A stretch of 64,000 bases of DNA, taken from sequence record PZ386965.1; one strand, written 5' to 3'. Position numbers and translations under genes: made by a program. Shown here in pieces: positions 1 through 12,839 of this stretch; the stretch's first letter is position 1, and each line of letters begins with the position of its first letter. This DNA is from a phage. A model generated the notes under the pieces. That model had not been told where the DNA came from, did not search any database, and worked only from the letters and a program-made list of their open reading frames with translations.

Positions 1-1839
<1,839 letters not shown>

Positions 1840-1866
1840 AAATAAAGCAAATTAAGAGGAATTAAA

Positions 1867-3849
1867 ATGTCACTTCTCTCTCCGGGCGTTGAGCTCAAAG
1901 AAACTACCGTACAGAGTACTGTAGTTAATAACTCCACTGGTACTGCTGCCCTGGCTGGAAAATTCCAATGGGGACCTGCATTCCAGATTAAACAAATCAC
2001 TGATGAAGTTGCATTGGTTGATATGTTTGGTACTCCTAATACGGATACAGCAGATTATTTCATGTCTGCTATGAACTTCCTTCAATATGGTAATGACCTT
2101 CGTGTTGTACGCGCAGTTGATCGTGATACTGCTAAGAACTCATCTCCTGTAGCAGGCAATATTGAATTCACAATCTCTGCAGCCGGTAGTAACTATGCGG
2201 TTGGTGATAAAATTATCGTTAAGTATTTGACCGAAACTGTTGAAGCAGATGGTTATGTCACTTCAGTTGATGTCGATGGTAAAATTCTTAACATTTATAT
2301 CCCAACCGGTAAAATTATTGCTCGTGCAAAAGAAATTAATGAATATCCGGCATTGGGTTCTAACTGGACCGCCGAAGTTGCCAGTTCTTCTTCTGGACTC
2401 TCTGGCGTTATTACAATTGGTTCTATCGTAACCGATTCGGGTATTCTGTTGACTGAAGTTGAAACTTCTGAAGAAGCTATTACTTCTCTAACTTTCCAAG
2501 AATCTATTAAAAAATATGGTGTACCAGGCGTAGTTGCTCTTTATCCTGGTGAACTTGGCGACCAGCTCGAAATTGAAATCGTATCTAAAGCAGACTATGA
2601 CAAAGGTGCTTCAGCTCAGTTAAAAATTTATCCTGATGGCGGTACTCGTGCATCTACTGCTAAAGCAATCTTTGGATATGGCCCACAAACTGATGACCAA
2701 TATGCAATTATCGTTCGTCGTAACGATGCTGTAGTCCAGAGCGTAGTTCTTTCTACTAAACGCGGTGAACGAGATATTTATGGTAGCAATATCTTCATTG
2801 ATGATTTCTTTGCTAAAGGCGCAAGCAATTATATTTTCGCTACGGCACAAGGTTGGCCAAAAGGTTTCTCTGGCGTAATCAAACTGAGTGGTGGCTTATC
2901 ATCTAATGAAACGGTTGACGCTGGTGATTTAATGGAAGCTTGGGATTTGTTTGCTGACCGCGAATCTGTTAATGCGCAGTTGTTTATTGCCGGTTCTTGT
3001 GCAGGTGAATCTTTAGAAGTTGCTTCTACAGTTCAGAAACATGTTGTAGCAATTGGTGATTCTCGTCAAGATTGCTTGGTTCTTTGCTCACCGCCACGTT
3101 CAACTATAGTCGGTATTCCTGTTAATCGTGCAGTTGATAATCTGGTTGATTGGCGTACTGCGTCAGGAACTTACACCGATAATAACTTTAATGTAAGTTC
3201 TACTTATGCTGCTATTGATGGTAACTATAAATATCAATACGACAAATATAATGACGTGAATCGTTGGGTTCCATTAGCTGCTGATATCGCCGGTCTTTGT
3301 GCTCGCACAGATAATATTTCTCAGCCTTGGATGTCTCCGGCCGGTTATAACCGTGGACAAATTCTTAACGTTATTAAGCTTGCAATTGAAACTCGTCAAC
3401 CACAACGTGATCGTTTGTATCAGGAAGCTATTAACCCTGTTACTGGTACTGGTGGTGATGGATATGTTCTGTATGGTGATAAAACTGCCACTTCCGTTCC
3501 TTCACCATTTGACCGTATTAACGTTCGTCGTTTGTTCAATATGGTTAAAACGAACATTGGTTCAGCATCTAAATATCGCCTGTTTGAATTGAACAACGCA
3601 TTTACCCGTTCTTCTTTCCGTACAGAGACTTCTCAATATCTACAGGGTATTAAAGCTCTCGGTGGTGTATATAACTTTAAAGTTGTTTGTGATACTACCA
3701 ATAACACCCCAGCAGTTATCGACCGTAATGAATTTGTAGCTACTTTCTACTTACAACCTGCCCGCTCGATAAATTATATTACGTTGAACTTTGTAGCAAC
3801 AGCAACTGGTGCCGATTTCGACGAACTGATTGGTGCTGTAGGTGGTTAA
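1867..3849 (+). CDS. 18: tail sheath protein (gp18)
   Basis: 660 aa, T4 gp18-like length and sequence; TATAAATA late promoter upstream. Confidence 0.95.
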   Translation: MSLLSPGVELKETTVQSTVVNNSTGTAALAGKFQWGPAFQIKQITDEVALVDMFGTPNTDTADYFMSAMNFLQYGNDLRVVRAVDRDTAKNSSPVAGNIEFTISAAGSNYAVGDKIIVKYLTETVEADGYVTSVDVDGKILNIYIPTGKIIARAKEINEYPALGSNWTAEVASSSSGLSGVITIGSIVTDSGILLTEVETSEEAITSLTFQESIKKYGVPGVVALYPGELGDQLEIEIVSKADYDKGASAQLKIYPDGGTRASTAKAIFGYGPQTDDQYAIIVRRNDAVVQSVVLSTKRGERDIYGSNIFIDDFFAKGASNYIFATAQGWPKGFSGVIKLSGGLSSNETVDAGDLMEAWDLFADRESVNAQLFIAGSCAGESLEVASTVQKHVVAIGDSRQDCLVLCSPPRSTIVGIPVNRAVDNLVDWRTASGTYTDNNFNVSSTYAAIDGNYKYQYDKYNDVNRWVPLAADIAGLCARTDNISQPWMSPAGYNRGQILNVIKLAIETRQPQRDRLYQEAINPVTGTGGDGYVLYGDKTATSVPSPFDRINVRRLFNMVKTNIGSASKYRLFELNNAFTRSSFRTETSQYLQGIKALGGVYNFKVVCDTTNNTPAVIDRNEFVATFYLQPARSINYITLNFVATATGADFDELIGAVGG

Positions 3850-8277: not shown

Positions 8278-9846
8278 ATGACTACTATCAAAACTAAAGC
8301 TCAGCTCGTAGACAAATGGAAAGAACTGCTGGAAGGTGAAGGCCTGCCGGAAATCGCTAATAGCAAGCAGGCTATTATCGCTAAAATCTTCGAAAACCAG
8401 GAAAAAGATTTCGAAGTATCCCCTGAATATAAAGACGAGAAAATCGCTCAGGCATTTGGTTCTTTCTTGACCGAAGCTGAAATTGGTGGTGACCACGGTT
8501 ATAATGCTCAGAACATCGCAGCAGGTCAAACCTCTGGTGCAGTAACCCAAATTGGGCCGGCAGTTATGGGTATGGTTCGTCGTGCTATTCCTAATCTGAT
8601 CGCTTTTGATATTTGTGGTGTTCAGCCTATGAACAGCCCGACCGGTCAGGTATTTGCTCTCCGTGCAGTATATGGTAAAGACCCTATCGCTGCTGGCGCT
8701 AAAGAAGCTTTCCATCCGATGTATGCCCCAGACGCGATGTTCTCTGGTCAGGGTGCTGCTAAGAAATTCCCAGCTCTGGCTGCTGACACTACTACTGTTG
8801 TAGGTGATATCTATACTCACTTCTTCCAAGAAACTGGTACTGTATATCTGCAAGCTTCTGCTGTCGTAACACTTGATTCTAGTGCAACTGATGCAGCTAA
8901 ATTAGATGCAGAAGTTAAGAAACAAATGGAAGCTGGTGCACTGGTAGAAATCGCTGAAGGTATGGCTACTTCTATCGCTGAACTCCAGGAAGGTTTCAAC
9001 GGTTCTACCGATAACCCATGGAATGAAATGGGCTTCCGTATCGATAAACAAGTTATCGAAGCTAAATCTCGCCAGCTGAAAGCTGCTTACTCTATCGAAT
9101 TAGCACAAGACCTCCGTGCAGTACACGGTATGGATGCTGATGCTGAACTGAGCGGTATTCTGGCTACAGAAATTATGCTAGAAATCAACCGTGAAGTTGT
9201 TGATTGGATTAACTACTCAGCACAGGTTGGTAAATCCGGTATGACCCTGACTCCGGGTTCTAAAGCTGGTGTATTTGACTTCCAGGACCCGATTGATATC
9301 CGTGGTGCTCGTTGGGCCGGTGAAAGCTTTAAATCTCTGTTGTTCCAGATTGATAAAGAAGCAGTTGAAATTGCTCGTCAAACCGGTCGTGGTGAAGGTA
9401 ACTTCATTATCGCTTCCCGTAACGTAGTTAACGTACTGGCATCAGTTGATACTGGTATTTCTTACGCTGCACAGGGTCTGGCTTCTGGTTTTAATACCGA
9501 CACTACTAAGTCTGTATTCGCCGGTGTACTTGGTGGTAAATACCGCGTATACATCGACCAGTATGCTAAACAGGATTACTTCACCGTTGGTTACAAAGGC
9601 GCTAACGAAATGGATGCAGGTATCTACTATGCTCCTTACGTTGCACTTACCCCACTGCGTGGTTCCGATCCTAAGAACTTCCAGCCGGTAATGGGCTTTA
9701 AAACTCGTTACGGTATCGGTGTTAACCCGTTTGCTGAAAGTTCCCTGCAGGCTCCAGGTGCTCGCATCCAGTCCGGTATGCCGTCTATCCTGAACAGCCT
9801 TGGTAAGAACGCTTACTTTAGACGCGTCTACGTTAAAGGAATTTAA
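8278..9846 (+). CDS. 23: major capsid protein (gp23)
   Basis: 522 aa, T4 gp23-like length and sequence; followed by intrinsic terminator. Confidence 0.96.
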   Translation: MTTIKTKAQLVDKWKELLEGEGLPEIANSKQAIIAKIFENQEKDFEVSPEYKDEKIAQAFGSFLTEAEIGGDHGYNAQNIAAGQTSGAVTQIGPAVMGMVRRAIPNLIAFDICGVQPMNSPTGQVFALRAVYGKDPIAAGAKEAFHPMYAPDAMFSGQGAAKKFPALAADTTTVVGDIYTHFFQETGTVYLQASAVVTLDSSATDAAKLDAEVKKQMEAGALVEIAEGMATSIAELQEGFNGSTDNPWNEMGFRIDKQVIEAKSRQLKAAYSIELAQDLRAVHGMDADAELSGILATEIMLEINREVVDWINYSAQVGKSGMTLTPGSKAGVFDFQDPIDIRGARWAGESFKSLLFQIDKEAVEIARQTGRGEGNFIIASRNVVNVLASVDTGISYAAQGLASGFNTDTTKSVFAGVLGGKYRVYIDQYAKQDYFTVGYKGANEMDAGIYYAPYVALTPLRGSDPKNFQPVMGFKTRYGIGVNPFAESSLQAPGARIQSGMPSILNSLGKNAYFRRVYVKGI

Positions 9847-9875
9847 TGCTTTAACGTTAAAATACATAACCTTAT

Positions 9876-9900
9876 GGGAGACTCCGGTCTCCCATTCTTG
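9876..9900 (+). terminator. intrinsic terminator after gene 23
   Basis: GGGAGAC-tccg-GTCTCCC hairpin followed by a T-rich run. Confidence 0.75.
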
Positions 9901-9903
9901 TTT

Positions 9904-10435
9904 CTATAGCTTAAAACAATCATCGCGTTCATTAATCCAATTTCTTATAGTTTTTGCGGATACGTTAAAGAATTCGGCAGCGTAATCGTAGTGGTTAAAT
10001 TCATGACCTTTAATAGAAATATCCACAAATACAAATTTCTTACCTTTATTAGAATTCTTTCTAATTTTTGCTTTATGCTCTTCTGATAGTTTTCTACCTT
10101 TAAGATGAGAATCTCTATTTTTATAAAACTTTTTATTTGCTATAGATTTGTTTTCTCGATGTTCTTTAGATTCTTTAGAACCTAATTTCTTTTTAGATAT
10201 TTTGGCCCGAACTTCTTCAGTCATACCAGCTTTTGTCTTTGGTATGGGTAGAATATTCACCGTTCCACCAGAAGTCAGTTTCATAAGCCAGGGCTTCGTA
10301 TTTCTTAACCAATGCATTAACTGCATTACCGTTAGGATTGGTACCAAATTTTTCTACCAGAGCTTTGATGTCTTTGTCAAGGTTAGAAAGTGTGGTACGG
10401 ATAAAGTTTAATTTGTTCATTTTTAATCTCCTCAT
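9904..10435 (-). pseudogene. degenerate GIY-YIG homing endonuclease (seg-like) remnant, split over two frames
   Basis: Two overlapping minus-strand ORFs in different frames; the downstream one carries NUMOD3-like repeats (TEEVRAKISKK, SEEHKAKIRK) and a C-terminal HTH resembling the I-TevI/Seg DNA-binding domain; no GIY or YIG catalytic motifs found; sits where T4 carries segD. Confidence 0.5.
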
Positions 10436-10449
10436 GTTTTGATAGGTCT

Positions 10450-10479
10450 ATAGTAACACGACGCTTTTTGTGTGTAAAC
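10450..10479 (-). promoter_or_regulatory. T4-type early promoter driving the seg-like remnant
   Basis: Minus strand GTTTAC, 18-nt spacer, TACTAT. Confidence 0.55.
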
Positions 10480-10485
10480 CACTTT

Positions 10486-10493
10486 TATAAATA
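10486..10493 (+). promoter_or_regulatory. T4 late promoter for gene 24
   Basis: TATAAATA about 30 nt upstream of the ATG. Confidence 0.7.
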
Positions 10494-10523
10494 AAATTAT
10501 ATTCTCAATAAGGAAAAAATGCA

Positions 10524-11807
10524 ATGAGTAAAATCCAAAAATTATTGCGCGAATCTACAACGTCTACTAGCAACTCAATTGGTCGCCCAAATCTCGTTGC
10601 TTTGACTCGCGCTACGACTAAATTAATATATTCTGACATTGTGGCAACACAAAGAACTAATCAACCTGTTGCTGCTTTTTATGGTATTAAATATCTTAAC
10701 CCAGACAACGAATTAACATTTAAAACTGGTGCTACTTATGCGGGTGAAGCTGGATATGTAGACCGAGAAAAAATTACTGAGCTCACAGAAGAATCAAAAG
10801 TCACACTAAATAAAGGCGATTTTTTCAAATATAATAATATCGTCTATAAAGTGTTAGAAGATACACCATTTGCAGATATTCAAGAAAGTGATCTAGAATT
10901 AGCTCTTCAGATTGCAGTCGTTCATTTAAAGGTACGGTTATTTTCAGATGCAGCGGTAACAAGCAAATTTGAAAGCTCCGATAGCGAAATTTCTGATGCA
11001 AGATTCCAGATTAATAAATGGCAAACTTCAGTCAAATCTCGTAAACTTAAAACTGGCCTCACGGTTGAATTAGCACAAGATTTGGAAGCGAATGGATTTG
11101 ATGCCCCTAACTTCTTAGAAGATTTGCTTGCTACTGAAATGGCAGATGAAATTAATAAAGATATTCTTCAGTCTTTAATTACTGTATCGAAACGTTATAA
11201 AGTTACTGGAATTACTGACACTGGATTTATTGACTTGAGCTATGCGTCAGCTCCAGAAGCAGGTCGTTCATTATATCGAATGGTGTGTGAAATGGTATCA
11301 CACATTCAAAAAGAGACAACTTATACTGCAACGTTTTGTGTAGCCTCAGCTCGTGCAGCTGCTATTCTTGCTGCTTCTGGTTGGTTAAAACATAAGCCAG
11401 AAGACGACAAGTATCTTTCACAAAATGCTTATGGATTCTTGGCAAATGGATTACCTCTTTACTGCGATACCAACAGCCCGTTAGATTATGTTATTGTGGG
11501 TGTTGTAGAAAATCTCGGCGAAAAAGAAATTGTAGGGTCCATCTTTTATGCTCCATACACTGAAGGAGTAGATTTAGATGACCCAGAACATGTCGGTGCT
11601 TTTAAAGTTGTAGTTGATCCAGAAAGCTTGCAACCGTCTATCGGATTATTGGTTAGATATGCTTTATCAGCAAATCCTTACACAGTAGCAAAAGACGAAA
11701 AAGAAGCGAGAATAATTGATGGTGGGGACATGGATAAAATGGCAGGACGTTCAGACTTGTCTGTTTTACTCGGTGTTAAATTGCCTAAAATTATTATAGA
11801 TGAATAA
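10524..11807 (+). CDS. 24: head vertex protein (gp24)
   Basis: 427 aa, same length as T4 gp24; late promoter upstream. Confidence 0.93.
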   Translation: MSKIQKLLRESTTSTSNSIGRPNLVALTRATTKLIYSDIVATQRTNQPVAAFYGIKYLNPDNELTFKTGATYAGEAGYVDREKITELTEESKVTLNKGDFFKYNNIVYKVLEDTPFADIQESDLELALQIAVVHLKVRLFSDAAVTSKFESSDSEISDARFQINKWQTSVKSRKLKTGLTVELAQDLEANGFDAPNFLEDLLATEMADEINKDILQSLITVSKRYKVTGITDTGFIDLSYASAPEAGRSLYRMVCEMVSHIQKETTYTATFCVASARAAAILAASGWLKHKPEDDKYLSQNAYGFLANGLPLYCDTNSPLDYVIVGVVENLGEKEIVGSIFYAPYTEGVDLDDPEHVGAFKVVVDPESLQPSIGLLVRYALSANPYTVAKDEKEARIIDGGDMDKMAGRSDLSVLLGVKLPKIIIDE

Positions 11808-11840: not shown

Positions 11841-12839
11841 TTATGATACTAATTCAATCCATGCAGGACGCAGAACATCTTGCACCATTCGGACTAATTC
11901 TTTCTTAACAAGATTCGGATTATCAGATGATGTTAATACAATACCTTCACGAGAAGTTTCTTCCAGAATATCTTGAACAGTCAATCCCATCACTTTGCCA
12001 AAATCTTTTGGCGTTACAGTCCCAATCTTAGAAATCACATTATTAATACGATTTAATGTAACATAACAAGCTAGAACATCAAGCAAGTTTTTGTCAATTT
12101 CGGTTAATGGAACCTGAGTTTTAATAGGCTTATCAGACTTTTTCTTTTCGCTGAATTTAGAGTTCTTGCACTTAATAGCTACACGAGTACCGTTTGGCAG
12201 CCATTTAGGGAAACAAGGCTTCAGAACATAACCTTCCGCAGTATTATCACCAATAACATTAGCATCAAATACGCAATTATTTGCTTCGACAAGGTCTTCT
12301 GACGCTGTAGCATTATAAGCGGCTAAGACAGAATCAAGGTCGTTTGGAATCATGATAAGAGCATCAAATGTTCCACGACCAAGCATTGGTGCCATTTTAA
12401 AACCGAATTCATTACAGAAATCTTGCATTTCGTAATCGGTCAAATACGTATTATCACCACTTTCTGTATTGATAAGGATATCGAACACATAAAAATCTTT
12501 TTCACCGTAGTCAACACCTTTCTGGATTCCACCACCAGCAAATTCACCGAATACTTGATATGATACGGCTCGAGCTGCGTGCATTAATTCCTGAACGGCT
12601 TTAATAGCTTTATCATACTTCTTGAGTACGATTTCATAACCATAAAAATCTTCTGCTGGAAGAATAGGGCCTGTGCGCTTGGCGCATGTGACGTTGTCAC
12701 GTTCAATTATTAACGAGAAGTTAGTCCCATGGATTTTCTCACGTGCTACCCAAACACCAGTAGTCAAACCATTAGTGTAGAGTTTTTCAATAAACTTAGA
12801 GTTGTAGTGGTTTTCAAGACTGCTGTATTTCTTAAACAT
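11841..12839 (-). CDS. rnlB: RNA ligase 2 (Rnl2)
   Basis: 332 aa, near-identical to T4 Rnl2 over the N-terminus; KIHGTN lysine-adenylate motif. Confidence 0.95.

Follow-up and report, generated by a model that had tools for sequence, protein, structure and literature searches.

A 413-bp deletion joins truncated copies of hyp88 and segD between genes 23 and 24 of a T-even-type coliphage

Introduction

The spacer between genes 23 and 24 of the phage in sequence record PZ386965.1 raises a simple question: are the two overlapping minus-strand open reading frames (ORFs) found there the halves of one broken homing endonuclease gene, or the remains of something else? In phage T4 the same position is held by segD, a free-standing GIY-YIG gene with no known target, which is unique in lying antisense to its neighbors and whose ribosome binding site (RBS) is only 2 nt from the AUG (PMC2988022). 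The window analyzed here (the whole 64-kb stretch of PZ386965.1) comes from a T-even-type coliphage, and its first 25 kb are 97-98% identical to the Escherichia phages mobillu and AV109-116 and to the Shigella phage JK45. The closest relatives of this phage are filed under Mosigvirus or Tequatrovirus. A preliminary description of the locus, made from the window alone, had read the two ORFs as one frameshifted and decayed segD-type gene. In this work the spacer was compared with its counterparts in T4 (L004), in NRG-P0074 (L005), in other GenBank phages and in metagenomic T4-like phages (L006-L010).

Results and Discussion

Organization of the gene 23/24 spacer

Gene 23 (major head protein, 8278..9846) and gene 24 (vertex protein, 10524..11807) lie on the plus strand, followed by rnlB on the minus strand (11841..12839). 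The 677-bp spacer between the two structural genes (9847-10523) holds the feature under study: two minus-strand ORFs that overlap in different frames and jointly cover ~530 nt (9904..10435). The upstream ORF is found at 10217..10435 (72 aa, or 67 aa counted from the ATG at 10420) and the downstream ORF, in the other frame, at 9904..10347. A Shine-Dalgarno (SD) sequence GAGGAG (10428..10433, minus strand) stands 7 nt before the ATG at 10420 and pairs with the anti-SD at -9.4 kcal/mol. Further upstream on the same strand there is a sigma-70-type (early-like) promoter, TTTACA-17 nt-TACTAT with an upstream TG (10450..10478), with 9/12 consensus matches. A promoter scan taken alone is not above chance (2 sites vs. 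2.6 expected in shuffled sequences); in the alignment the two hexamers (10478..10450) occupy the same position and are invariant or near-invariant in JK45, AnYang, the metagenomic phage L006 and T4. We infer that this promoter drives the operon formed by the small upstream gene and segD. The preliminary description had pointed out the overlapping ORFs, the GAGGAG site in front of a 67-aa frame without GIY or YIG motifs, and a promoter belonging to the element itself, and all of these were borne out.

In T4 the sequence TTTACA-17 nt-TATTAT with a TG is present upstream of segD (L004 7234..7323, minus strand), in register with the hexamers of the other phages. A review of T4 mobile elements published in 2010 stated that a segD-specific promoter could not be identified (PMC2988022).

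The remaining signals of the spacer are also in place. Genes 23 and segD converge on a GC-rich hairpin terminator (9874..9895, plus strand), which is intact in the window and is kept in JK45, SQ17 and L006 as well. Back-to-back with the minus-strand promoter, and outside the deleted segment described below, lies the T4-type late promoter of gene 24, TATAAATA (10486..10493, plus strand), which is invariant in the alignment of relatives; this sequence is the T4 late promoter consensus. An Rfam scan of 9700-10650 gave nothing meaningful (a single match at E 0.98).

One deletion between short direct repeats

When the spacer was compared by megablast with 50,697 phage records, 37 records covered at least 80% of 9847-10523. 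All 37 match the spacer in two pieces, with a span of ~1087-1091 bp vs. 677 bp in the window. The JK45 spacer contains two complete minus-strand genes, an 88-aa hypothetical gene (referred to here as hyp88) and a 219-aa gene annotated as "homing endonuclease, segD gene product." Alignment and a register-by-register comparison of the window with JK45 and NRG-P0074 both revealed a single gap of exactly 413 bp, and outside this gap the window is identical to NRG-P0074 at 677/677 positions. In JK45 and NRG-P0074 the gap is flanked by two copies of a 9-bp direct repeat, AAAGACAAA, placed 413 bp apart; the sole surviving copy in the window (10232..10240, minus strand) marks the deletion junction. 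The repeat with 413-bp spacing was missed by a repeat finder applied to the intact NRG-P0074 spacer but is seen directly in the register comparison.

As a result of the deletion, the small gene has neither codons 64-88 nor a stop codon of its own, the 3 nt between the genes are gone, and segD is short of its start codon and ~110 codons; the deleted segD part comprises the whole GIY-YIG catalytic domain plus part of the linker. Since 413 equals 3 x 137 + 2, the reading frame is not kept across the junction: the truncated small gene enters segD out of frame and stops after W-Y-D, which gives rise to the "two overlapping ORFs in different frames." The change of frame was formerly taken for a frameshift within a single gene; it results instead from a 413-bp deletion that joined two genes.

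The ancestral arrangement would have been a minus-strand operon with a sigma-70-type promoter, an 88-aa phrog_6003 gene, a gene for a 219-aa SegD-type endonuclease, and a terminator hairpin. Illegitimate recombination or replication slippage between the AAAGACAAA copies would then have removed 413 bp in one event, presumably spontaneous and neutral or nearly so, with a 67-aa chimeric ORF under the original promoter and RBS, plus an orphan segD 3' segment, as the products. Short direct repeats are the usual endpoints of spontaneous deletions in T4, as reported by Singer and Westlye in 1988. The promoter, the RBS, the gene 24 late promoter and the terminator were left untouched, so the essential neighboring genes should be unaffected. 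We consider it very probable that the locus is a single-deletion remnant of a hyp88-segD operon, reflecting the ordinary decay of a selfish gene.

The upstream ORF is a truncated copy of a conserved 88-aa gene

The upstream ORF, called here hyp88' (10217..10420, minus strand, 67 aa), consists of native residues 1-63/64 followed by the out-of-frame W-Y-D tail and a TGA stop. It is identical at 64/64 positions to the N-terminal residues of a separate 88-aa gene in relatives (L001 2221..2487; L003 1563..1829; L002 1940..2221). Against the phrog_6003 profile (90 positions) the JK45 88-aa protein matches positions 1-88 (E 1.2e-48), whereas the window ORF matches positions 1-64 only (E 7.7e-34); the window ORF thus falls short of a full-length match and is a truncated member of the family. 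No Pfam match and no GIY-YIG motif was detected in the upstream ORF, and the phrog_6003 family, which is listed as function-unknown, likewise has no Pfam match. What had been regarded as the N-terminal part of an endonuclease is therefore a truncated copy of an unrelated phrog_6003 gene.

This gene occupies the 23/24 spacer in 120 phage records, with 90-100% aa identity in most, and its carriers are filed in several genera of the Tevenvirinae, among them Tequatrovirus, Mosigvirus and Dhakavirus. It is present at the locus without segD in SQ17 and AnYang, and absent from T4. With promoter and RBS preserved, hyp88' is probably still made. The loss of its last 25 codons here suggests that hyp88 is dispensable, at least in the laboratory.

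The downstream ORF is the 3' part of a segD gene

The segD 3' part (9904..10231, minus strand) would encode a DNA-binding region with two NUMOD3-like repeats and a C-terminal helix-turn-helix (HTH). Counted from the Met at 10224, the remnant is identical at 106/106 aa to residues 114-219 of JK45 SegD, and the intact 219-aa gene that contains this segment is present in both JK45 and NRG-P0074. JK45 SegD and T4 SegD are in turn 59% identical, with high conservation in the N-terminal domain and conservation of the terminal HTH as well; together with this homology, the antisense position between genes 23 and 24 identifies the gene as a segD orthologue. In Pfam the downstream frame gave matches below threshold (NUMOD3 at E 0.0023-0.0038, HTH families at E 0.0025-0.003, HTH_17 at E 0.0025), and it matches phrog_314, "homing endonuclease," at E 3e-11. 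With a profile built from three SegD C-termini, the best match in the PDB was 1I3J, the DNA-binding domain of I-TevI (E 0.0038). The AlphaFold model of the remnant has a mean pLDDT of 65 and reaches 85-91 only over residues 70-107 (beta-hairpin + HTH), and the top PDB match of this model in Foldseek is again 1i3j_A (E 0.012, probability 1.0, 24% identity). A phmmer search of the PDB with full-length JK45 SegD returned only a ribosomal L5 match, which was judged spurious; by sequence, I-TevI was reached only with the three-member C-terminal profile.

These comparisons identify the remnant, by homology, as the C-terminal DNA-binding region of a SegD-type GIY-YIG homing endonuclease, and they give moderate, not strong, grounds for an I-TevI-like modular architecture of NUMOD3-type helices followed by an HTH. 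The I-TevI domain (PDB 1I3J/1T2T) shares with the remnant an extended region with helices and then a C-terminal HTH; the identity is ~24% with modest significance and no zinc finger is evident in the remnant. I-TevI is intron-encoded, whereas SegD is free-standing.

The catalytic part is missing from the window. The Pfam GIY-YIG/SegE_GIY-YIG matches of intact SegD proteins fall at residues 3-80, inside the deleted segment; for SegE_GIY-YIG (cut-off 25 bits) T4 SegD scores 27.8 bits and JK45 SegD 20 bits, below the cut-off. Neither window ORF has a match to the GIY-YIG catalytic domain. Searches of the 64-kb window by tblastn with JK45 and T4 SegD found the C-terminal part only and the N-terminal domain nowhere, which rules out its relocation elsewhere in the window. 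Nuclease activity is predicted to be gone from this allele, as none would be expected without the catalytic domain. The view that the locus carries a catalytically dead segD-type remnant, antisense between genes 23 and 24 as in T4 and with a downstream frame resembling the DNA-binding half of I-TevI/Seg proteins, is upheld by the identity to SegD residues 114-219, by synteny, and by 1I3J as the top match in both profile and fold searches.

T4 SegD (NP_049788.2) is one of the closest known counterparts: a free-standing GIY-YIG protein encoded antisense at the same locus behind similar promoter-like hexamers, and it has a NUMOD3-like + HTH C-terminus, as does the intact relative of the window gene. 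Unlike T4 segD, the window copy has neither the start codon nor residues 1 to ~110 (the GIY-YIG domain). T4 itself has no 88-aa gene in front of segD, which carries a GGAG SD of its own. The intact hyp88-segD operon is found in JK45 (YP_010076262.1/YP_010076261.1), NRG-P0074, BEU50, AV109-116, F2 and others. These phages share the promoter, RBS and terminator with the window and are 99-100% identical in DNA to it over all 677 surviving bases; they differ in carrying the extra 413 bp, which makes the 88-aa and 219-aa genes complete.

The allele is recent and private

No GenBank phage record examined carries the deletion. This holds for the 37 spacer matches and for a 111-nt junction query, for which the matches listed (15 of the 30 with full coverage) are all in two pieces. 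An exact scan with the 24-nt junction sequence found 0 matches in IMG/VR and 0 in JGI metagenomes, and an exact look-up of the chimeric 67-aa and 72-aa ORFs in a gene-position index found none on record.

The divergence around the spacer gives an indication of age. Positions 9625..10549 (925 nt) show zero differences from NRG-P0074, whereas the adjoining parts of genes 23 and 24 show 41/1500 and 27/1284 differences, respectively (~2.4%). About 23 differences would be expected in 925 nt, and under uniform divergence the probability of finding none is ~1e-10. The 925-nt tract, which is centered on the cassette, looks as if phages had recently exchanged the cassette by recombination or by a homing-type process. 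By the same comparison, the cassette can be judged to share a very recent ancestor with an intact cassette, and the deletion to be younger still and private to this phage. With no differences from the intact relative and one fresh lesion, the term "decayed" is misleading: we found one microhomology-mediated deletion, with the surviving 677 bp identical to an intact relative, rather than accumulated mutations. Within gene 24, 9 differences between the window and NRG-P0074 occur in the first 230 nt, and the right boundary of the identical tract lies just inside this gene.

Possible expression of a 106-aa product

An in-frame ATG (10224..10222), corresponding to Met114 of intact SegD, overlaps the stop codon of hyp88' (ATGACTGA), and its SD is weak (-4.1 kcal/mol). 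In the intact operon (L001 2217..2224) segD begins 3 nt past the hyp88 stop (TAAAATATG) without an SD (-1.0 kcal/mol), which suggests that its translation is probably coupled to that of hyp88. Where segD has no hyp88 upstream (T4, L004 7233..7245; L006 2555..2576), a GGAG SD of its own is present. In the deletion allele the overlap of ATG and stop might allow termination-reinitiation and a low level of free 106-aa DNA-binding domain, and some reinitiation of this kind is plausible. It seems very doubtful that the deletion, by recreating a coupled start, generated an early free-standing 106-aa SegD DNA-binding domain that occupies the SegD site. If it did, the domain might serve as a nuclease-free competitor (an anti-homing/anti-exclusion factor) or as a local repressor, and a homing endonuclease would then have taken a first step toward domestication. 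A programmed ribosomal frameshift between the two ORFs was rejected, as the two genes are separate and complete in relatives and an overlap is found in the deletion allele alone; a +1 shift would be needed, and there is no conserved signal because the junction is unique.

Alternative explanations

The reading from which this analysis started holds that a single seg gene was split by a frameshift, the 67-aa upstream frame representing the N-terminal half of the endonuclease in mutated form. The ORFs do overlap in different frames, the upstream one does lack GIY-YIG motifs, and a genuine 1-nt split of segD exists at this very locus in L006-L010. The alignment nevertheless refutes this reading, to which we attach almost no probability: the upstream ORF is identical at 64/64 residues to a separate gene that is also found without segD (SQ17, AnYang), and the 413-bp deletion fully accounts for the change of frame. 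Comparison with T4 and relatives, which had been suggested as a check, thus confirmed the relation to segD and replaced the single-gene frameshift by one 413-bp gap. It could also be argued that the deletion arose as an artefact in sequencing or assembly, or that it belongs to a minority of the phage stock, the real genome having an intact hyp88-segD operon, since the allele is unique among the collections searched and is otherwise identical to an intact relative. We regard this as very unlikely: a modern assembly would not collapse at a repeat of only 9 bp, the junction bears the signature of a genuine microhomology-mediated deletion, and the flanks are collinear and free of ambiguous bases.

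There is finally the proposal that the remnant was retained as a DNA-binding protein, with the 106-aa SegD fragment expressed and kept for binding the SegD target site, either as a competitor that protects against SegD of co-infecting relatives or as a repressor comparable to I-TevI, which represses its own transcription through its DNA-binding domain (PMC2988022). In favor of this, the reading frame is unbroken and its in-frame ATG shares bases with the stop codon upstream, the promoter and the upstream RBS are preserved, and the counterpart of the fragment in I-TevI is an autonomous DNA-binding domain. Against this, the SD is weak, P0001 (79 aa), the one free-standing homologue of the C-terminus that was found, itself arose through a frameshift, and with one carrier and no divergence since the deletion nothing indicates selection for the fragment; in so young and private an allele, selection could not yet have become visible. 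Such domestication appears very unlikely on present comparisons, and a single-deletion remnant of the hyp88-segD operon remains by far the preferred explanation.

Variability of the locus

The segD gene has also been broken at the same 23/24 locus, behind the same promoter and independently of the window allele, in the metagenomic phages. In L006 (2574..3240), and also in L007-L010, a 1-nt insertion in the linker splits segD into a 137/141-aa GIY-YIG ORF and a 79-aa HTH ORF (P0001); the GIY-YIG domain is still encoded and hyp88 is absent. This split segD occurs on 15 contigs (ENA ERZ272352xx-356xx samples plus one Logan run), among them contigs from six different samples, so the broken allele persists in nature, whereas the window deletion was seen only once. 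A word-index protein search with the 107-aa fragment returned P0001 alone; the search is insensitive for lysine-rich sequence and missed dozens of intact GenBank SegD homologues, and it is thus uninformative on the frequency of standalone domains. L006 also carries two adjacent Gp23/gp24-family genes (1..2476, minus strand; 427 and 426 aa, PF07068), apparently a tandem duplication of gene 24, which encodes the vertex protein.

Four other allelic states were observed between genes 23 and 24: hyp88 only (SQ17, AnYang), hyp88 + segD (JK45 and others), segD only (T4), and frameshifted segD. The window deletion is the fifth. Inactivation of segD therefore recurs independently at this locus, and given the five allelic states the earlier description of the site as a hotspot of mobile-element activity is reasonable. 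A segD that is non-homing and dispensable fits a gene that is easily lost, and T4 SegD has reportedly shown no bias in the inheritance of the 23/24 region. SegD was also the subject of a 2018 paper by Sokolov and co-workers (Virology 515:215).

Implications

We concluded that the feature is an ordinary, recent deletion remnant of an already known endonuclease gene fused to its truncated neighbor, and beyond correct annotation it matters little. The appropriate annotation is a pair of truncated genes derived from one deletion, hyp88' and a segD 3' remnant; neither a frameshifted endonuclease nor two hypothetical proteins should be entered. It provides a clean, datable case of the loss phase of a homing endonuclease, in which a microhomology-mediated deletion followed soon after acquisition, and it adds to the evidence that the 23/24 intergenic region is a variable spot in T-even phages. 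The allele could also be a convenient natural recipient for asking whether a JK45-type SegD homes; as this recipient still encodes the DNA-binding domain, such an experiment would at the same time test whether the domain interferes with homing.
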